64,000 nucleotides of DNA, from NCBI GenBank assembly GCA_007376295.1, contig VMGB01000001.1, positions 80,424 through 144,423 of the forward strand, read 5' to 3'. A model generated the notes under the pieces. The model ran no database searches and was not told where the DNA came from. It saw only the letters and a list, made by a program, of their open reading frames with translations. This DNA comes from Parcubacteria group bacterium Gr01-1014_13 (lineage in GTDB: Bacteria > Patescibacteriota > Patescibacteriia > Magasanikbacterales > GWA2-37-8). The translations under genes were made by a program, and so were the position numbers. Below are positions 1,552-55,817 of this stretch, in pieces (positions within the stretch are counted from its first letter, which is position 1; every line of letters starts with the position of its first letter).

Positions 1552-2148
1552 TTGAAATTTAATTTTATGTCCCTGCGCGCTCGCATTTTTATCATCATAA
1601 GTATAGTGGTATTTCTAATTTTAGGAATAAGCATATTTTTGATTGTTAGAAACAAAAATAAAAATGCCCAACCCCAGACTGGCGAGCCAAATACCACAGT
1701 CAACAGTAATGGCCAGCCTAATGACGGAACAACAGTTGGCGCTCAGGCTCCGGCCGGTCTCCCAGCCAAGACAGCCACTCCTTTGGAGGCTGAAAAAAAT
1801 AGCGTATCTCAACTGGCCAAGTTTTTTCTGGAACGTTACGGCACCTATTCATCGGACAATGATTTTCAGAATATAAAAGAAGTTGAAGTTTTTGTTACCG
1901 CAGCTCTATGGTCAAAGATTAGCGCGCCAATGAATTCTAAAACGACAACAAATGGCTTTGTGGGCATGACTACAAAAGTGATTAGCATGGAATTAACGGA
2001 TTGGTCTGATACCGCGGCCACAGTAGAGTTAAAAACAACCAGAACCGAAGAAAAAAATGGCGTAGTTTCTACGCGCTACCAAAATGCTACCGTGGAAATG
2101 GTAAAAGAAAATGGCGTTTGGTTGGCAGACAAATTGGTATGGAATTAG
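1552..2148 (+). CDS. hypothetical membrane-anchored protein (N-terminal TM helix, low-complexity linker, globular C-domain)
   Basis: Hydrophobic N-terminus 'IFIIISIVVFLILGISIFLIV', then a Pro/Thr/Gly-rich linker. It is coupled downstream of the ATPase gene. Confidence 0.4.
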   Translation: MKFNFMSLRARIFIIISIVVFLILGISIFLIVRNKNKNAQPQTGEPNTTVNSNGQPNDGTTVGAQAPAGLPAKTATPLEAEKNSVSQLAKFFLERYGTYSSDNDFQNIKEVEVFVTAALWSKISAPMNSKTTTNGFVGMTTKVISMELTDWSDTAATVELKTTRTEEKNGVVSTRYQNATVEMVKENGVWLADKLVWN

Positions 2149-2149
2149 T

Positions 2150-2776
2150 ATGATTCATCGGTTGATAAATAAAGTAAAAGATTTATTATTTCCAAAATTT
2201 TGCGTAAATTGTGAAAAAGAAGGAGTCTGGTTGTGTGAGGCGTGTCTTTCCTTAGAAAATTTAGCTCAAGAAGATAGAGCCGTGGCCAATTTAGATGGCA
2301 TAACGGCTTTATTTAATTACGGAGATAATACAATATCAAAATTAATTCAGATGTTTAAATATAATTATTTATTGGAGATTGCCGATATTTTTGAAAAAAT
2401 TATTACTGAAACTAAATTTAATAATACCTGGACTGATTTTGTCATTATTCCCGTACCGCTTCACGCCCGACGAGAGCGTGAAAGGGGATTGAACCAAGCC
2501 GAAGTTTTAGCCATGATGTTCGCCAAAAAATTTGGTTTAAGTATAAATAAAAATTTAAACCGCGTAGTTTATACCGTTCAGCAGGCAAAGTTATCTGGAG
2601 AAGAGAGGCGACAAAATTTAAAAGACGCCTTTGTTTTTAAAGGCGGTGCAGTACCAGAAAAAGTTTTATTAGTAGACGATGTATATACGACTGGCGCCAC
2701 TATGCAGGAATGTGCCAGAGTTTTAAAAAATAACGGGGTGAAAGTTGTTTGGGGTTTGGTGTTAGCAAAGGGTTAG
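2150..2776 (+). CDS. comF: ComF family protein (Zn-ribbon + phosphoribosyltransferase domain, ComFC-like)
   Basis: N-terminal Cys pairs 'CVNCEKEGVWLCEACL'. PRTase motif 'VLLVDDVYTTGATM'. First ATG at 2150; the ORF-track start at 2111 is an in-frame extension. Confidence 0.7.
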   Translation: MIHRLINKVKDLLFPKFCVNCEKEGVWLCEACLSLENLAQEDRAVANLDGITALFNYGDNTISKLIQMFKYNYLLEIADIFEKIITETKFNNTWTDFVIIPVPLHARRERERGLNQAEVLAMMFAKKFGLSINKNLNRVVYTVQQAKLSGEERRQNLKDAFVFKGGAVPEKVLLVDDVYTTGATMQECARVLKNNGVKVVWGLVLAKG

Positions 2777-3463: not shown

Positions 3464-4684
3464 TTATTTAATTTTAAAAATTTTTAAGACTTTTTGCAGT
3501 GCTTTTTCAGCCATATCTATGTCTTTGGTTGTGTTGTATAAATAAAAACTCATTCGGGCAGTAGAGTTTACTCCTAAGCGGCCAACCAGTGGTTCGGCGC
3601 AGTGCAGACCTGAACGAATAGTCACACCTTCTTGGTTGAAAATTGTGGCAATATCATGCGGATGCACACCGGTAACGGTAAAAGAAAGAACGCCGCCGCA
3701 ATCAGTAATGTGAGAAGGGGAGAATAGTTTTACTGCAGGGTAGCGAGAAAATCTTTTTTTGGCATAGGCCAAAAGTTTTCGGTCGTGGGCGGCAATAGCA
3801 GCCAGACCGATATTTTCTAAATAGTCGATGGCAGCGCCAAAGGCAATTACATCGGCAATATTGGGTGTGCCAGCTTCGAATTTCCAGGGGCCAGTGCGAT
3901 AGGTGGCTGTTTGTTGTTGTACGCTCTCCACCATATCGCCTCCATACATATATGGAGTCATTTCAGCCATTATATTTTGTTTGACATATAAAACACCAAC
4001 TCCGGTTGGGCCTAGCATTTTATGGGCGGAGAAAGCAAAGAAATCACAATCAATATCGCGTACATTTATTTTGGCATGTCCGACCATCTGCGCGCCATCC
4101 ACTAGTACTTTAGCGCCAACAGCATGGGCCATGGCCGTTATTTTTTTAACCGGTACAATTGTTCCGGTAACATTTGACTGAGCGGTAACACATACCAGTT
4201 TTGTTTTTTCTGATAATAGTTTTTCATAGGCTTCTAGATCTAATAAATAATCAGAAGTTATCGGGATAATTTTTAAAATAGCACCTTTTTCTTTGGCTAG
4301 TTCTTGCCAGGGGACCAGATTGGCGTGGTGTTCTAGAGCGCTGACAATTATTTCATCACCTTTGGTAATATGTGTTTTTGCCCAAGAAAAAGAAACGCAG
4401 TTTATAGCTTCTGTGCAATTTTTGGTAAAAATTACCTCTTCTTCATTTTTTGCACCAATAAATTTGGCTACTTTTTTTCTTACATCCTCGTATTGAGCGG
4501 TAGCTTCTTCGGAAAGAGTGTGGATGCCGCGGTGGATATTGGCGTTGCTGGTTGTGTAATATTTTTGTAATGCCAAAAGTACAGCTGTAGGCTTTTGGCT
4601 GGTGGAAGCGCTGTCTAAATAAACCAACGGTTTGCCATTGATTTTACGTTTTAATATGGGAAATTGTTTTTGGATATTTTTCAT
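3464..4684 (-). CDS. sufS: cysteine desulfurase SufS (PLP-dependent)
   Basis: 'NIHRGIHTLSEEAT' and PLP-Lys motif 'SAHKMLGPTGVGVLY'. Class V aminotransferase fold length. Confidence 0.85.
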   Translation of the reverse strand: MKNIQKQFPILKRKINGKPLVYLDSASTSQKPTAVLLALQKYYTTSNANIHRGIHTLSEEATAQYEDVRKKVAKFIGAKNEEEVIFTKNCTEAINCVSFSWAKTHITKGDEIIVSALEHHANLVPWQELAKEKGAILKIIPITSDYLLDLEAYEKLLSEKTKLVCVTAQSNVTGTIVPVKKITAMAHAVGAKVLVDGAQMVGHAKINVRDIDCDFFAFSAHKMLGPTGVGVLYVKQNIMAEMTPYMYGGDMVESVQQQTATYRTGPWKFEAGTPNIADVIAFGAAIDYLENIGLAAIAAHDRKLLAYAKKRFSRYPAVKLFSPSHITDCGGVLSFTVTGVHPHDIATIFNQEGVTIRSGLHCAEPLVGRLGVNSTARMSFYLYNTTKDIDMAEKALQKVLKIFKIK

Positions 4685-4688
4685 GTAC

Positions 4689-5309
4689 TTAGCTTTTTGT
4701 TTGTGATAGAAATGTAGTAACAGCTTCGCGAATTTTATTTTTTATCTCTTCATCATCAATCGCTCCCAATTCAGTTTCAAAAAATCCCTGTACTAACAAA
4801 GCGCGAGCCTGCTGCTCAGAAAGACCTCGGGAGAGTAGGTAAAATAGCGCGTCTGCGTCTACTTTACCCACACTAGCTGCGTGGCCAGCTTTGACATCGT
4901 CAGTTTTAATTTCTAAAAATGGTGCAGTTTTGGCCGAGGCGTTCGCAGATAAAAGTAAGGTGTGGTGAGCAAAATATGTATCTGCTCCATGACCTTCTTT
5001 TTCAATACTCCAAGCGCCTTCAATGCTGCAAGTTGATTTATCAGTCAAAGCGCTACGAATACGAGCTTTGATTTGAGTTTTTGGGGCTGCGTGGATAGCC
5101 TGTATTTTGGCATCAAAGGAAGAGTTGTCTGTTCCGAGAATAAAAAATATACACATACAGCTGGCTCCACGCCCTTGAGCGTTGATAGTTAAATGTCGTA
5201 CACCAGGCCAGCCTGTGGTTATTAGGCCGACAATAACAATCTCCTCATCACTTTTTAAGGTAATTGTTTTGTCTGGAATAGTATCAATAAACAAAATCTT
5301 ATTTGGCAT
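4689..5309 (-). CDS. sufD: SufD-like Fe-S assembly protein (short form)
   Basis: C-terminal motif 'DALFYLLSRGLSEQQARALLVQGF' is shared with the SufB C-terminus. It lies between sufB and sufS. Confidence 0.6.
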   Translation of the reverse strand: MPNKILFIDTIPDKTITLKSDEEIVIVGLITTGWPGVRHLTINAQGRGASCMCIFFILGTDNSSFDAKIQAIHAAPKTQIKARIRSALTDKSTCSIEGAWSIEKEGHGADTYFAHHTLLLSANASAKTAPFLEIKTDDVKAGHAASVGKVDADALFYLLSRGLSEQQARALLVQGFFETELGAIDDEEIKNKIREAVTTFLSQTKS

Positions 5310-11259: not shown

Positions 11260-11580
11260 TTATACCACAGCTTTTTCTATTTTTAATATCCTTCTTTTCA
11301 TCTCAGCACCTCGGTTGTATTCACCCAATTTTCCATCGGAACGGATTACGCGGTGGCAGGGGATGTCTGGCGCATAATTTTTCTTTAGAGCAGAGCCTAC
11401 GGCCCGATAAGCGTGTGGACGTCCCATTTTTTGCGCCACTTGTTTGTAGGTGAGGGTTTGGCCTTTGGGAATTTTTTTCACCACGGCGTAAACTTTTTCT
11501 TGGAATGGGGTCATAGGATAGCGGTGTGTGATTGATGTTGTCGGAATTACAACCAAGTTAGAAGCAAGAACGCGCCGCAA
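11260..11580 (-). CDS. ogt: methylated-DNA--protein-cysteine methyltransferase (Ogt/MGMT), C-terminal catalytic domain only
   Basis: Active-site 'IPCHRVIRSDGKLGEY'. Only ~106 aa; it lacks the usual N-terminal domain. Confidence 0.75.
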   Translation of the reverse strand: MRRVLASNLVVIPTTSITHRYPMTPFQEKVYAVVKKIPKGQTLTYKQVAQKMGRPHAYRAVGSALKKNYAPDIPCHRVIRSDGKLGEYNRGAEMKRRILKIEKAVV

Positions 11581-13138: not shown

Positions 13139-13648
13139 TTATAGCATTTCGGTTTTGATTTTTTCAATCAGTGGGCCGTGGGTGCAGCGGAAAATGAAAC
13201 CGTCGTCAAGTTTAATATCATGAGTCGTGTGATGCGGCCGTTCTACTTTTATCACACTCTCCGACCATTCTAGAATTGCGATCATTGCATGATACGTTAA
13301 AGAGGTAGGGAAAACTTCGACATGATCAAATCCATTTTTTTGAGAATTATCCGGTTTTTGATCGGAAAGTTCGAGGAAATTGATTTCTCCCAACGCTGTG
13401 TTGATGCCACGCTTTAATTTTATGTAAGCAATTCGGCGCCCAGAAATAATGCTTTGGTAGATATATTCACTTGTAGATTCTAGCAGAGTTCGTATAAAAT
13501 CAAATGATTCTTTTGATTCGCATTTATAACAAATATGATCTGCTCTAGTTTTTCCTTGAAGGTCGTATTTGTTTGCAAAATCGTTAAAAGAGCGCATTGA
13601 TTTTTCTGCTTCAATGTAAAATTCGTCGAGTGTTTTAATGATATCCAT
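13139..13648 (-). CDS. YecM-like VOC (glyoxalase-fold) family protein
   Basis: 'RADHICYKCES' and 'NGFDHVEVFP' resemble E. coli YecM motifs 'ADHISLRCH' and 'EGWEHIEIV' (from memory). Confidence 0.45.
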   Translation of the reverse strand: MDIIKTLDEFYIEAEKSMRSFNDFANKYDLQGKTRADHICYKCESKESFDFIRTLLESTSEYIYQSIISGRRIAYIKLKRGINTALGEINFLELSDQKPDNSQKNGFDHVEVFPTSLTYHAMIAILEWSESVIKVERPHHTTHDIKLDDGFIFRCTHGPLIEKIKTEML

Positions 13649-13692
13649 GAAATTATTATATATTAAAAATAACCCTATTGTATAGGGTTATC

Positions 13693-13783
13693 TGGCGGAG
13701 AGGGAGAGATTCGAACTCTCGAGGGATTTTACTCCCTGCCACGTTAGCAGTGTGGTGCCTTCAACCATCTCGGCCACCTCTCC
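13693..13783 (-). tRNA. tRNA-Ser (anticodon GCU), class II with long variable arm, CCA encoded
   Basis: Reverse complement folds as a cloverleaf. Perfect 7-bp acceptor stem GGAGAGG/CCTCTCC, discriminator G, encoded CCA. Anticodon loop CU-GCU-AA, long variable arm, T-loop GTTCGAATC. Confidence 0.85.
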
Positions 13784-13889
13784 ATATTGTTCCGATATTC
13801 TATCAGAAAATCGTATTTAGTCAATGGCTCTCGACAAATTATTAATATCAAGTTAAACTAAAAATAATCTAAAGATTAACTTTAATATT

Positions 13890-13997
13890 ATGCAAAATCA
13901 GGAAGAAGATATTGACGTATGGGACGAAGTGGTTGATTTTACAAAAATAAAAAAAGGAGGGATAAAGGTAGAAGAGATTCTATCTCGTTTGTAGAAT
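13890..13997 (+). CDS. possible small acidic ORF (35 aa, MQNQEEDIDVWDEVVDFTKIKKGGIKVEEILSRL)
   Basis: Short ATG-initiated ORF in the 350-bp gap between tRNA-Ser and the island genes. No homology recognised. Confidence 0.15.
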
Positions 13998-14131
13998 AAT
14001 TTATAGAGTAGAGTATAGCCAAGTTTATTTGTTGGCCATAGAGAAAAGGAGCGAAAATACATATAAAGATATTTAAAAAAATAGCGTGGCCAATGTGTTA
14101 GCCACGCTGAAAGGACAAATTTATTCTTTTT

Positions 14132-14617
14132 CTAGAAACGATGTTTGATGTAATACCAAACGTCACCATTGTCAATCCACTTGCATACCTCTTGAAGAAT
14201 TATGGTTTCGACAGATTCTGCCAGGTTTTCGGCAGAATACACGCGTTGGTTGGAGCAGCGCAGGCCACTATACCTCCAAAATAGGCCGCTTACAGAAATT
14301 CCGAGTGAAACTTTCTCCGTTCCCATTACCTGTCCGTTAAAGAAGCATAGGTCTGATCCATGCGACGCCTTCATCAATTCCTTACCATCGTCGCTTTCTC
14401 TTAGCTCTGTGGCCCAGAGAAAAATCTTGGTTGCGTACTCCAAGCCATTTTTTAGTCTGGCGATACGAAGATTTTTTTGTTTTGCTTCTCTTTTTTGTTT
14501 GATCAGCTTCTCCGATTTTTCTTTTTTCAATCTTTTCTTGTATAATCTTTGAGCAAGCTCGTGGATGTCTTTAGGAATGTTGAAGGCGGTTTTGTCTGTC
14601 GGGACCTTCTTGTTCAT
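14132..14617 (-). CDS. hypothetical protein with basic N-terminus; possibly a third diverged paralog of the two upstream genes
   Basis: K/R-rich N-terminus ('KKRLKKEKSEKLIKQKREAKQKN'). Shares weak 'LW..E', 'NGQ' and 'LGIS' spacing with the paralogs at 14617 and 15250. Start overlaps the stop of the upstream gene. Confidence 0.4.
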   Translation of the reverse strand: MNKKVPTDKTAFNIPKDIHELAQRLYKKRLKKEKSEKLIKQKREAKQKNLRIARLKNGLEYATKIFLWATELRESDDGKELMKASHGSDLCFFNGQVMGTEKVSLGISVSGLFWRYSGLRCSNQRVYSAENLAESVETIILQEVCKWIDNGDVWYYIKHRF

Positions 14618-15225
14618 TAGCTATTTCCTTTTGAGGAGGTGGTAACTTTGTTGATTTTCATCAACTCTTCCAGAGCTTTTTTGTCTCTGGCTTTGTCCAA
14701 ATCATTGGTGCGTTCCACCGGAATACCAATAACTTTAAAATCTTCGCGGCCGTGTTTGAGCACGGGGATATTGCATTTTTTGGCCGTCTCTATGGCCAAA
14801 TCTTTGGCCCATTTATACAAAAGATCTTCCGACAACCTAATCTGGCGGTATCTGCCTTGTTTGGCATTTTTGTCTTGCCAGTTTAGGTCTATGTGCCAGT
14901 TACGACTGCGGTGAGGATGATGTCTCGAAGACGGACCAGACTCCCAAAGAGCAAGATGTGGCATTACCAGCAAAGCATCTCGGATAGCTTCGTGTTCCGG
15001 ATATTTATCCATTTGCGTCGGTTTGCATTTTTCGCAAGGCCGGTAGCCGCATTTGATAGCGTCTTTCCAGCTGGCAAAGAAAACACGGTTTTCTTTGAGC
15101 ATACGTTTACCAGACTTACAATCCAGCCGGCCAAATATTTTGTGTGTGGTATTACCGGCGTAGACACCAGGGATAAGAGTGATTATTTGCTCACCCTGTT
15201 TGTTTAGCAACTTGTACTGCTTCAT
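14617..15225 (-). CDS. Ada-type Zn-binding (methylphosphotriester-DNA binding) domain fused to an unrecognised conserved domain
   Basis: 'NTTHKIFGRLDCKSGKRMLKENRVFFASWKDAIKCGYRPCEKCKP' matches E. coli N-Ada as I recall it, except the first (methyl-acceptor) Cys is Gly. C-terminal half is paralogous to gene 15250..15633. SD 'AAGGAG' lies 6 nt upstream of the ATG. Confidence 0.55.
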   Translation of the reverse strand: MKQYKLLNKQGEQIITLIPGVYAGNTTHKIFGRLDCKSGKRMLKENRVFFASWKDAIKCGYRPCEKCKPTQMDKYPEHEAIRDALLVMPHLALWESGPSSRHHPHRSRNWHIDLNWQDKNAKQGRYRQIRLSEDLLYKWAKDLAIETAKKCNIPVLKHGREDFKVIGIPVERTNDLDKARDKKALEELMKINKVTTSSKGNS

Positions 15226-15249
15226 CGCTAACTCCTTGTGTAGTTTTTT

Positions 15250-15633
15250 CTAAAACGCAGAAGTGAACCTGATAGCTTTTTTGCTAGTCTGTAACTCTGC
15301 GACAGATTTTTTCTTTTTCGCGCTGGATTTTTTTGTCGGTACCCACAACACAGTGAATCCCACAACATCGTGCTCTATCACCGGCAGGTTATATGAAATG
15401 CCAAGAGCGATCGCAACCGGTTTTGCTTTATCGTATACAAAGTGATTTGTCAAACTAAGACAGCAGTCTATTGTTTGGCCGTTATTTTTTTCTTGCCAGT
15501 TCAGAGCCATATACCAGGTGCAGTCTGGTTTGTTGCGATCTGGCGGCGGACCTGATTTCCACATAGCAATGTGTGGCTTCGCTTCCAACTTTAAATTCTT
15601 CAAAAACTTTTTTTGTTTTTCTTGTTGACCCAC
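15250..15633 (-). CDS. stand-alone paralog of the unrecognised domain ('PH[IL]A[ML]W[KE]SGP...LNWQ[ED]KN')
   Basis: Motif-for-motif match to the C-half of the gene at 14617. Start set at GTG 15633, preceded by AGGAGG and clear of the ABC-F stop. ORF-track start is 15711. Confidence 0.45.
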   Translation of the reverse strand: MGQQEKQKKFLKNLKLEAKPHIAMWKSGPPPDRNKPDCTWYMALNWQEKNNGQTIDCCLSLTNHFVYDKAKPVAIALGISYNLPVIEHDVVGFTVLWVPTKKSSAKKKKSVAELQTSKKAIRFTSAF

Positions 15634-15673
15634 GAGGCCTCCTGTTGATAAATAGCTGATGTTAATATACAGC

Positions 15674-17146
15674 TTAAAGTGTTTCCAAATCAAGAGTCTG
15701 GGTAATACCAATTTGATCCACGAATTCTGGTACGTGGCTAACGAGGATTATTGCGCCTTCAAATTCATCTAGGGCTTTGGCGATGATAGGTAAGTGGCGG
15801 AAGTTTATATGATTAGTCGGTTCGTCCATGATAAGAAGCCCAGGTTTTTGTAAAACAAATCTGGCATAGCAAAGCAAACCTTTTTGTCCTTCAGAAAGCG
15901 AACCGACTTTGTTTTTTAAAATTTCCGAAGACAGCAAAAACATGGCAGCAGTAGCGTAAATTTCTTGATTAAATGGATTTGGCATCATTTCTTCCAGCGC
16001 TTGATAAGCGGTTTTATCAAAATCTAATCCAGAAAAATCTTGGCGGTAGTAGCCAACACGCACATCGGGAGTAATTACCGCACCTTCATTGGTACCATCG
16101 GCGAGAGCTTGGAGAAGTGTGCTTTTGCCGATGCCGTTTGGGCCTTTGATAAGCAGACGTTGTCTTTTGCGCACAGTAATGGCTGGAGAAATATTTTTTT
16201 GCACCGGTTCATGATCTATCATTACACCCACGGAATTTATTTCCACCATCGGTCCGATAATTTCTGGTTGTGAAGGAATAGTAAATTCATTTATAGTTTT
16301 ATCTTCTCGGCGTTCATCTACCATATCTTCTTCGGCTTCTTCTACTTGGTCGCGTAGTTTGCTGGCCAAGGCGCGCATCTTACCGCCTTTGTTGGCGAAA
16401 AAGTTTATTTTATCTTTTCTATCCTGAATACTTTTGCGTAATTGGGCGTTTTTGGCGCGTTCGCGTTCAATGCGGGCTTCGATTTCTCCCAGTACGCTAT
16501 AGTAGTCGCCAACGTATTGTTCGATTTTATGTGTAAAGGAATCCAAATACAGCACGCCGTCGGTAAAAGAATTTAAAAAATTGGCGTCGTGGGAAATAAC
16601 CAGACAAGTTTTAGGGTAGGACATTAGAAAAGCAGTAAGGTGCTCTATTCCTTGAGTGTCCAAATTGTTGGTTGGTTCATCAAGAAGTAAAATATCCGGT
16701 TTTTGAATTAACGCATAAGCCAAAAGAAGTCTGGCCTGCTGTCCACCGGAAAACTGTTTAATTTTTTTATCCAGTGGTGCTTTGAGGTGCACGATATTTA
16801 AAACTTCGTTTATGCGTTTTGGTAAATCAAATATTTTTTTATCAAAGGTTTGGCCAAAAAATTCTTCCACAGTTTTTTCTAGGTTTTCTGGCTTCATGAC
16901 TTGGGTAGCAATGGCAATACTAGCTCCAAGACTGGTGTTGGCTTGGCCGTTTTCTGGTTTTAAATCTTTGGTGATTAATTTAAAAATGGTGCTTTTGCCA
17001 GCGCCGTTTTGGCCCATGATGGTGAATTTGGAATTTTCACGCACAGAAAAACTGGCCTCATCCAAAATGGGTTTATTCTCGTCGTAAGCAAATGATACTT
17101 CGTCGAAAGAGATAATTACGTTACCGTGACTAGACATAGTGGGCAT
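15674..17146 (-). CDS. ABC-F family ATPase (two tandem ABC domains, no TMD; EttA/Uup-like translation factor)
   Basis: Two Walker A motifs ('GQNGAGKST', 'GPNGIGKST'), two ABC signatures ('FSGGQQAR', 'LSEGQKG') and a linker between them. Confidence 0.85.
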   Translation of the reverse strand: MPTMSSHGNVIISFDEVSFAYDENKPILDEASFSVRENSKFTIMGQNGAGKSTIFKLITKDLKPENGQANTSLGASIAIATQVMKPENLEKTVEEFFGQTFDKKIFDLPKRINEVLNIVHLKAPLDKKIKQFSGGQQARLLLAYALIQKPDILLLDEPTNNLDTQGIEHLTAFLMSYPKTCLVISHDANFLNSFTDGVLYLDSFTHKIEQYVGDYYSVLGEIEARIERERAKNAQLRKSIQDRKDKINFFANKGGKMRALASKLRDQVEEAEEDMVDERREDKTINEFTIPSQPEIIGPMVEINSVGVMIDHEPVQKNISPAITVRKRQRLLIKGPNGIGKSTLLQALADGTNEGAVITPDVRVGYYRQDFSGLDFDKTAYQALEEMMPNPFNQEIYATAAMFLLSSEILKNKVGSLSEGQKGLLCYARFVLQKPGLLIMDEPTNHINFRHLPIIAKALDEFEGAIILVSHVPEFVDQIGITQTLDLETL

Positions 17147-17236
17147 ATACTAACAGAAAAAAAGGCCGCGGTCAACCAGTATGCTTGTATTTGTCTATGA
17201 TTTTATGGTAACCTAAGCCCACAGGAGGAAACAAAC

Positions 17237-17443
17237 ATGGTTGGACCAGTAGGACAAGCAGGGCCTTGGGGGCCGAACGGATTTTTCACCAGAGTAAAGC
17301 GCGGAACAAATTTTGCGCTTGTCGGTGTAGGCGTTGCTGCTATCGCAAGTTTTTTCATACCAATTGTTCCGCTCGTGGCAGTATTAAGCGCCGGCGGCGT
17401 TGGCGGCGCAGCAATCGCAAAGGCGACCGGAAAGAAAAAATAA
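17237..17443 (+). CDS. small hydrophobic Gly/Ala-rich membrane peptide (68 aa)
   Basis: Stand-alone unit: SD 'AGGAGG' upstream of the ATG and an intrinsic terminator immediately downstream. Two hydrophobic segments; ends KKK. Confidence 0.4.
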   Translation: MVGPVGQAGPWGPNGFFTRVKRGTNFALVGVGVAAIASFFIPIVPLVAVLSAGGVGGAAIAKATGKKK

Positions 17444-28644: not shown

Positions 28645-29526
28645 TTGCCAATGCGGTTCACTGTCGGCAGGGTGGGAAGCCTGATCAGTGGTCGTTATGA
28701 ACTCAAGGAACATATTTATACAAGCAACATGAGTAGCGTGCTCAAAGCTTGGGATTATAAAGAAGATCGCTTCGTGGTTGTCAAGATTTCTACAGATACT
28801 GTCCAATACTCCAATTTGGTAGAGTGTCTAAAGCGTGAAGCCGGGGCGCTTAGCAGGATTGATCATCCACGCGTTGTACGTGTATTCGATTCTGGAAATA
28901 TTGGACCGTCACATTTTATAGTGTTGGAATATATACACGGCACAAATCTCGCTAATTATATTCACAGACACGGTCGTTTGTTTCTGGATGCTGCCATTTC
29001 GGTAGGCATAGACCTGCTTGAAGGTTTAGAAGCTATACATAAAGAGGGGATCGTTCACCGCGATCTCAAACCAGAGAATTTGATTACTACTCGTATCGGA
29101 GTCAAAATTATCGATCTCGGTTTGGCTGTATCTACGCCCGCAGCAGAGCAAAAGATGGATCCATTAGATAGTCCTGGAATGGTAAGTGGCACACCCCCAT
29201 ATCTTTCGCCTGAGCAAGCTCAGGGATCCGAAGATTTGGACGCTCGGTCCGATCTGTATGCTTGCGGCGTTATATTATATGAACTGTTAACTGGAGCTCT
29301 TCCTTTTTATAACTTTAAAAAGGACGGGCAGATATTTAAATATTGGCAAGGACGATTGCGTCCGTTTTGGGAAGTATCGCCTGCTGTAGACGTTCCAGAC
29401 AAAGTCCAAGCCGTTGTTTGGAAGGCGCTGGCAGTTGACCCCAAGGATCGTTATCAAACTGCCGAAGAAATGCGGATGGCTTTGCTAGAGGTAATGGAAA
29501 AATATGTCACAATTCCGTTGCCGTGA
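28645..29526 (+). CDS. Ser/Thr protein kinase (catalytic domain only)
   Basis: Catalytic loop 'HRDLKPENL', 'DLGLA' (DFG-equivalent), 'GTPPYLSPE' (APE motif). No TM or PASTA domain. Confidence 0.8.
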   Translation: MPMRFTVGRVGSLISGRYELKEHIYTSNMSSVLKAWDYKEDRFVVVKISTDTVQYSNLVECLKREAGALSRIDHPRVVRVFDSGNIGPSHFIVLEYIHGTNLANYIHRHGRLFLDAAISVGIDLLEGLEAIHKEGIVHRDLKPENLITTRIGVKIIDLGLAVSTPAAEQKMDPLDSPGMVSGTPPYLSPEQAQGSEDLDARSDLYACGVILYELLTGALPFYNFKKDGQIFKYWQGRLRPFWEVSPAVDVPDKVQAVVWKALAVDPKDRYQTAEEMRMALLEVMEKYVTIPLP

Positions 29527-32401: not shown

Positions 32402-33352
32402 ATGACCAGATCTTTCAAACAGCAGTGTGAGAAGCCGTGGGCAATGGGTAAGTATGTCTGTGTCGGGCTCGACCCGGACTTCAACAGGCTTCCCACCCAT
32501 CTAAAAGACCTCCGTAGTCCAGAGAAATGGATCTTTGATTTTTTGAAAGCGATTGTTGATTCGACGGTAAAAGTCGCCGCGGCTTTCAAACCAAACTATG
32601 CTTTTTTCGAGAAGTATGGTGATCTGGGTGTTAAAGTCTACGTGATGATTTGTCAATATATCAAGGCATTTCATAAGGATGTTGTCCTTATCTGTGATTC
32701 CAAGCGCGGGGATATCGGTGATACGAACGTCGGTTCGGCAGACTTCTTTTTCGAGCGGTGCAATGCTGATGCGGTTACGGTCAATGGTTATCTCGGGCCA
32801 GAAGCTCTGGAGCCGTTCCTCAATCGTGAGGATAAAGGTGTGTTCATTTTGTGTCGTACTTCTAACTCCGGATCTGGAGAGCTCCAAAATCTACAGGTTC
32901 AGGTTTCTGCAGAAGAAGCCGAGATGTTTCGTCTGCCTTCCGCACTACCTTCCCAAGAGATGACCTGGGAAGAATCTCAGAGGTACCATAAGGAGAAAAA
33001 GCTTACTTATCATATGCCACTTTACCAGTACGTGGCCGCTCGGGTCAGCCATTCTTGGAACAAGAAAAACAACAATTGCGGTTTGGTAACTGGCGCTACC
33101 TACGCAGAAGACATCTACAATGTTCGTCATGTTGCGCCCGATTTACCTCTTCTTATCCCAGGTATCGGCAAGCAGGGTGGCGATCTCGAAAAGTCGGTGA
33201 GGGCGGCGAGCAGTCGATTTTTCGTCAATTCATCGAGCGCTATTCTGTATGCGTCACAGGGCGAAGATTTTGCCGAAGCAGCTTTGGCCAAGACCTTTGA
33301 ACTGGATAGCCAAATCCGCGCTCTGGTAGAGCAACAGCGCTGGGAGTTTTAA
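32402..33352 (+). CDS. pyrF: orotidine-5'-phosphate decarboxylase, type 2
   Basis: 'KYVCVGLDPD' and 'FKPNYAFFEKYG', then 'DSKRGDIGDT' (Lys-Asp active-site region). Length fits type-2 enzymes. Confidence 0.6.
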   Translation: MTRSFKQQCEKPWAMGKYVCVGLDPDFNRLPTHLKDLRSPEKWIFDFLKAIVDSTVKVAAAFKPNYAFFEKYGDLGVKVYVMICQYIKAFHKDVVLICDSKRGDIGDTNVGSADFFFERCNADAVTVNGYLGPEALEPFLNREDKGVFILCRTSNSGSGELQNLQVQVSAEEAEMFRLPSALPSQEMTWEESQRYHKEKKLTYHMPLYQYVAARVSHSWNKKNNNCGLVTGATYAEDIYNVRHVAPDLPLLIPGIGKQGGDLEKSVRAASSRFFVNSSSAILYASQGEDFAEAALAKTFELDSQIRALVEQQRWEF

Positions 33353-34069: not shown

Positions 34070-34852
34070 ATGAAGCAAGATTTGACGCAGTGCAGCCTTC
34101 AGGGAGTTTTTGATTTTGTTTATGCGCAAAATCAAGAGCCGCACAATAGTTTGCTCATTCTGAGTGAAAAAGAAGTTAAGCATATCATTGGTCTTGCTGG
34201 GGGATTTTGGCATCACAACGGTGATCCAAAAGCCCCGCATGCAGTGATGCGGTCAGGCAAACATACCGATGGTTTTGTGTCTTTGCCTGAAGCGCTAAAA
34301 TATGTTGCGATTAACAATTTGTTTGCCGCAACATTGGCAAAGAAAATTCACCGAAGCTCATATCATAATCAGCGGATTGATTGGGTGATTGGATCAGATC
34401 ATGCTGCCGGCACGTTTTCCTACGCTGTCGCAGACGAGCTAAGAAAGTGTAATTTTCTTTGGCGCGGAATCAAACAAGATTTCACTGAAAAAGCCATGGT
34501 AAATGGCGAGGAGATCCAAAAATGGTCTCGTCATGTCATTAAGAAGGAAGAATTCGTTTTGCAGGTTGAAGAACTTTGTTCCACCAACCTGACGATTGGG
34601 CGCGTGTATGAAGGCGTTAATAACGCCCATCCAGATTACACGATTTCTTATGTGCCGATTGTTGGTATGGCAGTAAACAGGACTGGAAGGGATTTGTTCC
34701 ATGGAAGGAAGGTCGTCTCGCTCCTTAACATCAAGTTCAAGGAATGGGATGTCCGGAAGCGTGAAGAGTGCAGTCTTTGCAAAGGCGGCTCCGAACCGCT
34801 CGAAGACGTCAAGAAGTCCGCGGCTACGTGGGCCAAGCTAAATTGTCATTAG
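34070..34852 (+). CDS. type-I phosphoribosyltransferase-like protein (possibly divergent orotate PRTase)
   Basis: PRPP-binding-like motif 'FVLQVEELCSTNLTIG' (compare VLLVDDVxTTGxT). Located between pyrF and dus. Confidence 0.3.
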   Translation: MKQDLTQCSLQGVFDFVYAQNQEPHNSLLILSEKEVKHIIGLAGGFWHHNGDPKAPHAVMRSGKHTDGFVSLPEALKYVAINNLFAATLAKKIHRSSYHNQRIDWVIGSDHAAGTFSYAVADELRKCNFLWRGIKQDFTEKAMVNGEEIQKWSRHVIKKEEFVLQVEELCSTNLTIGRVYEGVNNAHPDYTISYVPIVGMAVNRTGRDLFHGRKVVSLLNIKFKEWDVRKREECSLCKGGSEPLEDVKKSAATWAKLNCH

Positions 34853-39329: not shown

Positions 39330-39752
39330 GTGAAGAATTTGCTCATTTCTCTACTCATCTTGACCGTCACGATCTCGTTCCAACCGGCTTACGCCGACGG
39401 GTATGGGCTCGGGCGGGCCGAACTAAACAAGGTTCTCGAGCCTCTCCGGTCCAGCATCAACCGTTGCTACCTCGCCAATGCAGGTGAGCGCGGCGGTCGT
39501 CTGGATCTCACGCTCGAAATCAGCCGCTACGGCTCGGTGTACACTACTGATGTTTCTACACCAGATCTGCGCAACAAGTTCGTCGCGCGCAAGATCAGCG
39601 CCTGCGTTCGAGGTATCGTCAAGGACTTGGCGTTCCCGACACGCAAAGCAGCGACTACATCCAAGTTCTCGTACATCTTTCATAAGGCACGCTCCCCAGG
39701 CGATGGCCCGCAGCTAAGCTGCTGGAATCCCCGCGGTTGTCCGGGTAAGTAG
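39330..39752 (+). CDS. high-GC secreted protein with AgmX/PglI-C (TonB-C-like) domain; probable horizontally acquired gene
   Basis: G+C is conspicuously higher than flanks (by eye, not computed). GTG start with SD GGAGG. Signal peptide 'LLISLLILTVTISFQPAYA'. Pattern 'INRCY..G.LDLTLEIS..GSV...VS....FV..ISACV..V.DLAFP' recalls the Myxococcota-type AgmX/PglI C-terminal domain (from memory). Own promoter and terminator. Confidence 0.55.
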   Translation: MKNLLISLLILTVTISFQPAYADGYGLGRAELNKVLEPLRSSINRCYLANAGERGGRLDLTLEISRYGSVYTTDVSTPDLRNKFVARKISACVRGIVKDLAFPTRKAATTSKFSYIFHKARSPGDGPQLSCWNPRGCPGK

Positions 39753-54632: not shown

Positions 54633-54695
54633 TAAGGTCCCGGGTATAATTGACTACCATCTATATAGATGGTAGTCTTTTGTTTAGGAGGAAGT

Positions 54696-55817
54696 ATGAA
54701 GGACCAAAAAGAATTGATCGTCGATCTGGAGCCTTATCTAGACGGTAGTGTTGAAGGAACCAGACATGCTTGTCGTCGTTTGGTAAACATTTTGCACAAA
54801 CAGTCATTTGTCATTGTGTATGATCCGCGCGTTTCTAATGTTGATAATGACCGGTATCTAGACATGATGGAGCGATACTTTTCCCAGTCGGAAAAACAGC
54901 TACGGAAAGACGAGCGCCCCAAATTGCATTATCAAGTTGGCGTTTCCAAGGGTCAGGAAAAGCCTCGTGATCATCGCGCGTATATTTCAACTATGCGGCC
55001 TGAGCACTGGCCGCATATTACGCCGCCTAATTACAAAGGTGATCCGCGTTGGCGATTCTTCCGAAATTTAGGCAAGCCGCCATCGAAGACCAAATTTCCC
55101 AAGCTTAACGCTCAGCGCACACCTGTAATTCCGAAGGGGTTTGAAGGTGAATGGGCAAAGACCATGGACACTTGGGGCGAGAAGATGTTGGCAAGCGTTT
55201 TCACGATTGCTGAGATGATGGCGGAAGCGTTCGGACTGCCAAAGAGTACTTTTACCAAAAAGTTCGCTCATGCTCCACATCTAATTGCTCCCAACGGAGT
55301 GAATTTGCTGGACTATCCCGAAGGGACTGTTTTCAATGGTTTTCACTATGATCTGAATTGGGGCACCATTCATGGCCGTTCTCGTTTTCCTGGTCTTAGG
55401 GTCTGGCCGCGTGATGGGGCACCGTTTACGGTGCGTGTTCCAAAAGGGGCTTTGCTTTTCCAAGTAGCCAAACAGTTGGAATGGCAAACTGGCGGATATT
55501 TCCGCGCTGGGTTCCATGAAGTAGTGAATTTGCCCGACACTGTGAAGGCTGCGCAAGAAGCTGCGCGTACCGGACGTCCGCCAATCAGAGTTTCTTCAAC
55601 TGTTTTTGCTCACGTGGCGAGCGATCTGACTTTGCGGGTAGAAAAAAAAGTTTTGGAAAATGATCTTGGTAGCATAGATCATGCCTCTGAAGTTTTGGAT
55701 CTGCCGGCGGGTGAATCTGCCAAGCATCTTGCCAAGATTTTGCAGATGTATCCGCCCACCAAAGCGGGAGATCAGGTGCTTGGCGAACTAAAGGCGCTTG
55801 GTCTTAAGAAAGACTAA
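54696..55817 (+). CDS. 2OG-Fe(II)-oxygenase-superfamily-like protein (HxD...H), compositionally foreign
   Basis: 'FHYDLN' (HxD) and distal 'FHEV' about 55 aa later. Higher G+C than neighbours by eye. Strong SD 'AGGAGG' 4 nt before ATG 54696. Confidence 0.45.
   Translation: MKDQKELIVDLEPYLDGSVEGTRHACRRLVNILHKQSFVIVYDPRVSNVDNDRYLDMMERYFSQSEKQLRKDERPKLHYQVGVSKGQEKPRDHRAYISTMRPEHWPHITPPNYKGDPRWRFFRNLGKPPSKTKFPKLNAQRTPVIPKGFEGEWAKTMDTWGEKMLASVFTIAEMMAEAFGLPKSTFTKKFAHAPHLIAPNGVNLLDYPEGTVFNGFHYDLNWGTIHGRSRFPGLRVWPRDGAPFTVRVPKGALLFQVAKQLEWQTGGYFRAGFHEVVNLPDTVKAAQEAARTGRPPIRVSSTVFAHVASDLTLRVEKKVLENDLGSIDHASEVLDLPAGESAKHLAKILQMYPPTKAGDQVLGELKALGLKKD

Follow-up and report, generated by a model that had tools for sequence, protein, structure and literature searches.

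Among zinc-thiolate methyl acceptors that work as electrostatic switches, the Ada protein of Escherichia coli is the textbook example. The zinc ligands of its N-terminal domain (N-Ada) sit in CRPSC and PCKRC motifs, and methylation of one of them, Cys38, cuts the negative charge at the zinc site and greatly raises the affinity for DNA (PMC10779285; PMC10814553). In Caulobacter, whose Ada functions are divided between Cada1 and Cada2, exchange of the acceptor Cys in the Ogt domain of Cada2 for Gly leaves the protein constitutively ON, whereas exchange for Ala inactivates it (PMC10957082). ADA_N-like fingers occur in many further architectures, some of them with decayed zinc sites and with a function that is undetermined (PMC12353581). 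Here we describe a locus of three genes, named g1, g2 and g3, in a 64,000-nucleotide (nt) stretch of the genome of Parcubacteria group bacterium Gr01-1014_13 (contig VMGB01000001.1, positions 80,424 to 144,423), which we refer to as the window and from whose first letter all coordinates are counted. We show that g2 joins an Ada-type zinc domain, with Gly in the place of Cys38, to a domain that belongs to none of the libraries searched. The data also suggest that the Gly38 state is the trait of a large sub-family and that the locus, taken in an earlier note on this DNA for a recently acquired island, has been inherited vertically.

The closest described domain, N-Ada10 (PF02805; 1ADN, 1EYF, 1U8B), resembles the zinc domain of g2 over some 48 residues that include the RENxxF core and G[FY]RPCxxC, and is likewise basic. 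It differs in that the methyl acceptor and fourth ligand, Cys38, is Gly in g2, and the g2 protein opens with a beta-hairpin-like segment of its own (KLYKLL..IPGxYAGN). Unlike in Ada, neither an AraC-type helix-turn-helix (HTH) nor an Ogt domain follows the zinc domain. Stand-alone Gly38 proteins share the signature KIFGRLDCKSG, KKENRVFF and GYRPCxxCKP with g2 residues 1-75, but they consist of a single domain or end in a short tail (..FERIKHLVPYKTLEEFY), whereas g2 adds an unclassified domain of 125 amino acids (aa). With the split regulators of Caulobacter and of Bacteroidota the locus has in common that Ada modules are spread over separate or recombined proteins; in contrast to them, the predicted operon in the window lacks an HTH partner and repair genes and has an ABC-F gene upstream. 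The ADA_N-like fingers (ECOD X-group; RplD, ArfC, Cwp27, ComEC) are a precedent for an Ada-type finger in non-Ada architectures (PMC12353581), but they are remote homologs and usually C-terminal, whereas g2 carries its domain at the N-terminus, with a score above the Pfam threshold.

Results

An Ada-type zinc domain with Gly in place of Cys38

The middle gene of the locus, g2 (14617..15225, minus strand), encodes a protein of 202 aa with an isoelectric point (pI) of 9.7, deposited at NCBI as the hypothetical protein G01um101413_88. Its residues 22-69 (15019..15162, minus strand) match the Pfam family Ada_Zn_binding (PF02805) with 42.8 bits against a cut-off of 23, and comparison with the solved N-Ada structures 1ADN and 1EYF by phmmer gave E=1.9e-6. 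Gly32, encoded by a GGC codon (15130..15132, minus strand), stands opposite Cys38 of E. coli Ada, while Cys36, Cys64 and Cys67 stand opposite Cys42, Cys69 and Cys72, so that the motifs GRLDC and PCEKC retain three of the four zinc-ligand cysteines of N-Ada. The earlier note had described the zinc site in just these terms. No HTH_18 or HTH_AraC match was found in g2, and its C-terminal part has no match in Pfam or NCBIfam. Judged by alignment, the zinc domain of g2 is a true Ada-type domain without the Cys38 acceptor; because that acceptor is absent, the domain cannot serve as a suicide methylphosphotriester methyltransferase through Cys38, and the earlier suggestion of a binder or sensor in place of a suicide enzyme appears reasonable as far as Cys38 is concerned. 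A literature search for this substitution in Ada returned nothing relevant. A Cys38Gly mutant of N-Ada from the Verdine laboratory is reported to have been rescued by exogenous thiols, but we do not use it as evidence.

Gly occupies the Cys38 position in 12 of the 13 fusion proteins of the close clade and in the distant fusions P0017, P0032 and P0035. Three residues were considered as a substitute fourth zinc ligand and rejected. Most close-clade fusions have His29 (TTHKIFGRLDC), but P0014, P0016, P0017, P0032, P0035 and the stand-alone family lack it; Cys59 (IKCGY) is found in one sub-clade only; and Asp35 is invariant in proteins of the candidate phyla radiation (CPR) type and variable in Bacteroidota.

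The Gly38 state is shared by a large sub-family

Searching with residues 1-75 of g2 returned 43 clusters of stand-alone proteins of 70-100 aa, aligned over their full length at 55-70% identity and annotated as "metal-binding protein" or "Ada metal-binding domain-containing protein". In all 43, the signature KIFGRLDCKSGKRMKKENRVFF...GYRPCKKCKP has Gly where Ada has Cys38, and g2 carries this sub-family signature as KIFGRLDC, LKENRVFF and GYRPCEKC. A pattern scan that took one genome per species found the sub-family in at least 248 species, a figure to be read as a lower bound. Its hosts are for the most part CPR bacteria or DPANN archaea (Woesearchaeota, Nanoarchaeota, Micrarchaeota), with further occurrences in some Melainabacteria, Elusimicrobia, Bacteroidota and Proteobacteria. 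Because Gly is found throughout these stand-alone relatives, across so many species, the Gly38 state is, on the alignments, a trait of the sub-family and not a peculiarity of this fusion, and the nearest relatives of the g2 domain are proteins of a kind usual in CPR and DPANN organisms. The sub-family is already present in databases under generic names, uncharacterized.

Copies of the Gly38 zinc protein from CPR bacteria and from DPANN archaea (L025-L090) share about 55-85% identity, and many of them end in a conserved tail of about 25 aa (..DEEDFERIKHLVPYKTLEEFYNR). The stand-alone gene was found to have no recurrent neighbour among the CPR/DPANN loci; the context of one such protein, P0068, was uninformative, its upstream 222-aa gene being unrelated to the C-terminal domain of g2. 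In Bacteroidota, the Gly38 gene adjoins genes for an AraC-HTH-Ogt protein (seven loci), a PF09859 "Oxygenase-NA" protein (seven) and an AlkA-like HhH-GPD glycosylase (four). These clusters, found in L091-L104 (for example L094 2980-5161 and L099 1221-3222) and also containing a metallo-beta-lactamase-fold gene, look like an Ada regulon from which the zinc domain has been split off as a protein of its own, without the acceptor Cys.

The second domain of g2 is rare and unclassified

The zinc domain of g2 is followed by an unclassified alpha/beta domain, residues 75-190 (14656..15003, minus strand; delimited from a structure model and alignment A4), hereafter the C-domain. The upstream gene g1 (15250..15633, minus strand; 127 aa, pI 9.7), whose product is identical to database protein P0001, encodes a stand-alone copy of it. 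BLASTP aligned g1 with the C-terminal part of g2 at 34% identity over 103 aa (E=5e-18), which bears out the paralogy proposed in the earlier note. The g1 lineage forms a stand-alone group of its own with P0006, P0007 and P0018, and it is closer to C-domains of the P0010/P0011 type (45-47% identity) than to g2 (30-34%), which argues for an old duplication.

The domain had been reported as one that could not be placed, and this stands after wider searches: nothing in Pfam, NCBIfam, PHROGs or PADLOC matches it, and structure comparison gave no convincing neighbour. The best sequence-profile match in the PDB was Cas12j-SF05, at a sub-threshold E of about 0.1, and Foldseek against BFVD gave a best E of 0.03 with a TM-score below 0.4. 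An AlphaFold2 (AF2) model of the C-domain alone reached a mean predicted local distance difference test score (pLDDT) of 84.8 and a predicted TM-score (pTM) of 0.76, and has the secondary-structure order alpha-beta-beta-beta-alpha-beta-beta-alpha. In this model the domain would resemble the beta-beta-beta-alpha-beta subdomain of RNase H-like/ASKHA proteins in topology only; membership of that group, which calls for a significant structural match together with an acidic DEDD set or phosphate-binding motifs, was rejected. The alignment A4 shows the motifs PH[IL]ALW, W[YH].xLNWQ and NxPV[IL]xH, with His16, Trp42, Ala66, Ala70 and Pro80 invariant or nearly so; several Trp and Tyr residues, Gln, small residues of the long helix and NLPV[IL]xH are conserved as well. 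Neither Asp nor Glu is conserved anywhere in it.

When both copies were compared with 5.8 billion proteins through a word index, 16 matched, namely 13 fusions and three stand-alone forms. Exhaustive profile comparison with 1.84 billion cluster representatives gave 21 matches. Four of these, CUB/PKD or other repeat proteins, were discarded as spurious; the remainder are small proteins of 100-145 aa or further Ada fusions (P0016, P0017, P0032, P0035). A scan of GTDB species representatives with the C-domain found nothing, and homologs of g2 turned up in no more than a handful of contigs from metagenomes or metagenome-assembled genomes, mostly from groundwater. The C-domain is thus extremely rare and belongs to no searched library, and its fusion to an Ada zinc domain is a new architecture.

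The two domains are fused in the parcubacterial clade, in P0032 and P0035, and in P0024, a fusion cut at its 5' end by the edge of its contig. In L013 (361-1051) they are encoded by adjacent, separate genes: a Gly38 zinc open reading frame (ORF) of 81-84 aa ends at 615 and is followed within 10 nt, on the same strand, by the C-domain gene of P0020, which starts at 617 or 623. Fusion in divergent lineages and adjacency elsewhere constitute Rosetta-stone-type evidence for a shared function of the two domains. A peptidase_M10 (matrixin) gene neighbours two distant members, the fusion P0032 and the stand-alone P0028 (L009 4047-4952 and L012 3-158, respectively).

The locus is the predicted distal part of an ABC-F operon

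As the earlier note had it, three co-directional minus-strand genes lie between an ABC-F ATPase gene and a tRNA-Ser gene. The ABC-F gene (15674..17146, minus strand; 490 aa) has two Pfam ABC_tran matches, and its best NCBIfam match is to a ribosomal-protection-like ABC-F, with 308 bits, under the cut-off of 380. It is followed by g1, then after a gap of 24 nt by g2, and finally by g3 (14132..14617, minus strand), which encodes a basic orphan protein of 161 aa. The stop codon of g2 and the ATG of g3 overlap in TAATG at 14617, an arrangement by which g3 is predicted to be translationally coupled to g2. Shine-Dalgarno (SD) sequences read from the minus strand precede g1 (AGGAGG at 15638..15643, with a 4-nt spacer to the GTG start at 15633) and g2 (AAGGAG at 15232..15237, with a 6-nt spacer to the ATG start at 15225). 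All three proteins are strongly basic (pI 9.6-9.7, net charge +11 to +16), and no transmembrane or signal segments were found in any of them. Ratios of nonsynonymous to synonymous divergence (dN/dS) against orthologs are 0.15 for g1, 0.12-0.21 for g2 and 0.22-0.30 for g3; since all three are under purifying selection, they are real genes.

A consensus scan found a promoter-like pattern, TTGACC-17-TAGTAT with a TG extension, directly 5' of the ABC-F gene (17147..17175, minus strand), which we regard as the putative operon promoter. At the other end, 24 nt past the stop codon of g3, lies an intrinsic-terminator-like hairpin (14083..14108, minus strand) whose 11-bp stem contains six GC pairs and is followed by a T-run. 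ABC-F, g1, g2 and g3 are therefore best read as one predicted transcription unit of which ABC-F is probably the first gene. Between the terminator and the tRNA gene extends an AT-rich spacer of 300 nt (13784-14082, G+C about 0.3) that has no Rfam match and whose sole ORF, of 54 aa, is probably spurious; a consensus scan placed a promoter-like site of the tRNA gene within it (13797-13824). The tRNA-Ser(GCU) gene itself (13693..13783, minus strand; ARAGORN; Rfam 52.6 bits) is the only Rfam match in 13500-17400.

The locus appears to be vertically inherited

In every close-clade contig of sufficient length, a family gene lies 40-80 nt 3' of the same ABC-F gene (L001-L008, L014-L021), and the tRNA-Ser gene is found downstream wherever the contig reaches that far, which makes it a conserved landmark of the locus. 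The upstream genes for a 579-aa protein, a sigma-70 factor and a DUF5667 protein are syntenic too, and the divergence of g2 tracks that of its neighbours: in five comparisons, identities of the 579-aa protein and of g2 were 78 and 80%, 78 and 76%, 72 and 75%, 71 and 66%, and 69 and 62%. The nearest relatives of the zinc domain are CPR and DPANN proteins (55-70% identity). No integrase was found among the ORFs and no direct repeat involving the tRNA gene (13693-13783), on whose 5' side the trio lies; viral contigs yielded no member of either domain family.

The composition of the locus had been taken as a further sign of import. SD sequences are indeed rare in the window: one of at least 5 nt precedes six of its 64 genes if the start of the longest ORF is used, and 13 of 64 if any candidate start is allowed. 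The strong SDs of g1 and g2 were confirmed (6 nt each; 5 nt for g3). The "visibly higher G+C" of the trio proved to be a mild elevation, 0.433 compared with a mean of 0.406 over the genes (z=0.7), at the 87th percentile among 1.5-kb windows; G+C at third codon positions (GC3) is 0.46-0.49 against 0.376 (z=1.2-1.7). Three adjacent genes with such features are not improbable by chance (p=0.33 for SDs, p=0.08 for high GC3). The homologs likewise have SD-like sequences (AAAGGGGTGA, GGAAAGGAGGG, AAAGGAG) and a G+C content above that of their loci, so that SD and raised GC3 have been kept despite a synonymous divergence (dS) of about 1. Because of this conservation, the deviation in composition is no sign of recency, and both features appear to be maintained properties of these genes and not the fading trace of an import.

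Taken together, the synteny with relatives, the co-divergence of g2 and the conserved SD and GC3 contradict a recent acquisition from a non-CPR donor; on this comparative evidence, the g1-g3 locus is vertically inherited and is not a recent island.

Throughout the window, SDs of at least 5 nt are associated with a GC3 of at least 0.45 (Fisher p=2e-5; 0.002 without the trio). Other genes with both features lie at 28645-29526, 32402-33352, 34070-34852, 39330-39752 and 54669-55817; two of them encode a Ser/Thr kinase and an OMP-decarboxylase-like protein, and the remaining three, one of which (39330-39752) has a G+C content of 0.57, lack a Pfam match. Genes of this kind may represent a separate expression class, or else a class acquired longer ago.

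Variable companions of g2 and neighbouring genes

The gene content of the slot after ABC-F varies. g1 occurs in the window, L007 and L014, and g3 in the window, L001/L002, L007, L014, L016, L017 and L019, where it follows the C-domain gene; in L019 and L021 the same slot holds a C-domain-only gene. Between ABC-F and this gene, L019 has a 94-aa ORF (1899-2183, minus strand) judged by eye to be Phd/YefM-antitoxin-like. The slot thus seems to tolerate insertions. In several relatives an extra tRNA-Ser gene, with the anticodon ACT (ACU) according to ARAGORN, stands between tRNA-Ser(GCU) and the g2 homolog, which it follows directly (L004 3396-3483, L005 1202-1289, L008 5062-5151, L014 2686-2775, L020 1112-1199); this anticodon is unusual for bacteria, and the window has the GCU gene only. 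Past the tRNA, relatives carry other genes, for example for an M23 peptidase.

For g3, the basic N-terminus noted earlier is there, as a Lys/Arg-rich N-terminal helix. The accompanying suggestion that g3 is a diverged paralog of the shared domain was ruled out: BLASTP gave E values of 0.1 or more, and profile-sequence and profile-profile tests a probability of 0.1%. The g3 family comprises five confirmed members plus tblastn matches, and g3 has no match in PDB, Pfam, NCBIfam, PHROG or PADLOC. Two ORFs of L004, the locus of the most divergent fusion (P0016), at 3608-3991 (127 aa, between the two tRNA-Ser genes) and 4387-4872 (161 aa), have the lengths of g1 and g3 and no similarity to them.

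The minimal Ogt gene (11260..11580, minus strand), which the earlier note had joined to the trio in a possible alkylation-linked module, is real: it encodes the alkyltransferase C-domain only (PF01035, 108.7 bits; TIGR00589, 95.8 bits against a cut-off of 46.4) with the motif IPCHRVI. It lies, however, outside the predicted transcription unit of g2. By tblastn it is syntenic in relatives, and five to eight unrelated genes stand between it and g2. The Ogt ORF as listed starts with TTG and has 106 aa; relatives encode 84-93 aa, and the true start is probably an internal ATG (MTPFQEKVY...) that gives 84 aa.

Discussion

Several explanations of the locus are plausible. We tentatively favour, as a possibility that falls somewhat short of probable, that g1-g3 are the distal genes of an operon inherited vertically, at a fixed place next to tRNA-Ser, within a narrow clade of groundwater Parcubacteria, and that g2 serves as a methylation-independent nucleic-acid-binding adaptor or regulator. 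With one negative charge fewer, its zinc domain would act like a "switched-on" Ada and thus as a constitutive binder of nucleic-acid backbones, for which the Cys-to-Gly form of Cada2 is a precedent, albeit in the Ogt domain, while the C-domain would mediate interactions with partners or nucleic acids; a catalytic role of the C-domain seems unlikely, as it lacks a conserved acidic catalytic set. g1 might pair or compete with g2, and g3 would be a frequent, lineage-specific accessory coupled to it. A number of points weigh against this proposal. P0016 (L004 2673-3296), the sole family member with Cys at the critical position (KINKIFCRLDC), indicates that Gly is not obligatory, and the alignments contain no conserved replacement for the fourth zinc ligand. 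The AF2 confidence of the g2 zinc domain is low (pLDDT below 50), and a three-Cys site could still undergo alkylation via another cysteine. The conserved His of the PH motif and the conserved Gln of the C-domain could be catalytic in some unfamiliar chemistry. Co-transcription with ABC-F, finally, is a prediction from consensus scans.

An alternative, close to the alkylation-linked module of the earlier note and in our view rather unlikely, is a system for sensing or repairing DNA alkylation, in which the Gly38 domain would read alkylated backbone or bases, the C-domain would read or process the lesion, another cysteine or an exogenous thiol might serve as the acceptor, and the module would cooperate with the minimal Ogt. 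The Bacteroidota clusters, in which the Gly38 gene sits beside AraC-HTH-Ogt, oxygenase and AlkA-like genes, lend it indirect support, as do the natural division of Ada functions among proteins elsewhere (PMC10957082), the conserved Trp and Tyr residues of the C-domain, and the presence of a minimal Ogt with PCHR within 2-6 kb in those close relatives whose contigs extend far enough. Against this stand the loss of Cys38 itself, the lack of a recurrent repair neighbour at CPR and DPANN loci, and the distant fusion P0032, which has no Ogt nearby; moreover, several unrelated genes and a terminator separate Ogt from g2, and in a region that is syntenic anyway their proximity says little. That same neighbourhood in Bacteroidota, pointing as it does to DNA repair, also counts against a different and less probable idea, namely that the three proteins are accessory factors of ABC-F in translation or at the ribosome, binding rRNA or tRNA and not DNA. 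Such a role would fit the position of the family gene 40-80 nt downstream of ABC-F in every close relative, with no intervening terminator predicted in the window, the very basic character of all three proteins, their strong SDs in an SD-poor genome, and the fact that in Cutibacterium ribosomal protein L4 ends in an ADA_N-like domain (PMC12353581). The adjacency, however, is confined to one narrow clade with ABC-F proteins 86-98% identical and may be simple synteny, and neither the distant fusion P0032 nor the stand-alone members have an ABC-F neighbour.

These strands could also be combined, in a construction that we consider a long shot: the Gly38 domain as a "pre-switched" Ada sensor whose open fourth site binds a backbone phosphate or captures a thiol or lesion, the C-domain as an effector or reader fold for damaged nucleic acid, and the ABC-F operon as a link between alkylation of nucleic acid, possibly RNA, and the control of translation in ultra-small bacteria. 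Least credible of all is a recent mobile mini-island, be it a toxin-antitoxin or a defence cassette, at the tRNA-Ser gene. The adjacent tRNA, SD use and GC3 unlike those of most window genes, the variable presence of g1 and g3, and the other genes inserted in relatives (the Phd/YefM-like ORF of L019, the 127-aa ORF of L004) are what such an element might leave; yet there is neither an integrase nor a direct repeat of the tRNA, the genes lie on its 5' side, PADLOC and PHROG matches are absent, and no relatives were found on viral contigs. Above all, the same position in all relatives, the co-divergence with neighbouring genes, and SD and GC3 kept at a dS of about 1 largely refute it.

The value of the adaptor or regulator proposed here, a member of a rare family restricted in lineage, is that of a lead and not yet of a discovery. 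The locus nevertheless leads from the textbook switch of Ada to a large natural sub-family with Gly38. If characterized, the system would show what role an Ada zinc finger takes on after losing its chemistry, and would give a new fold a function.

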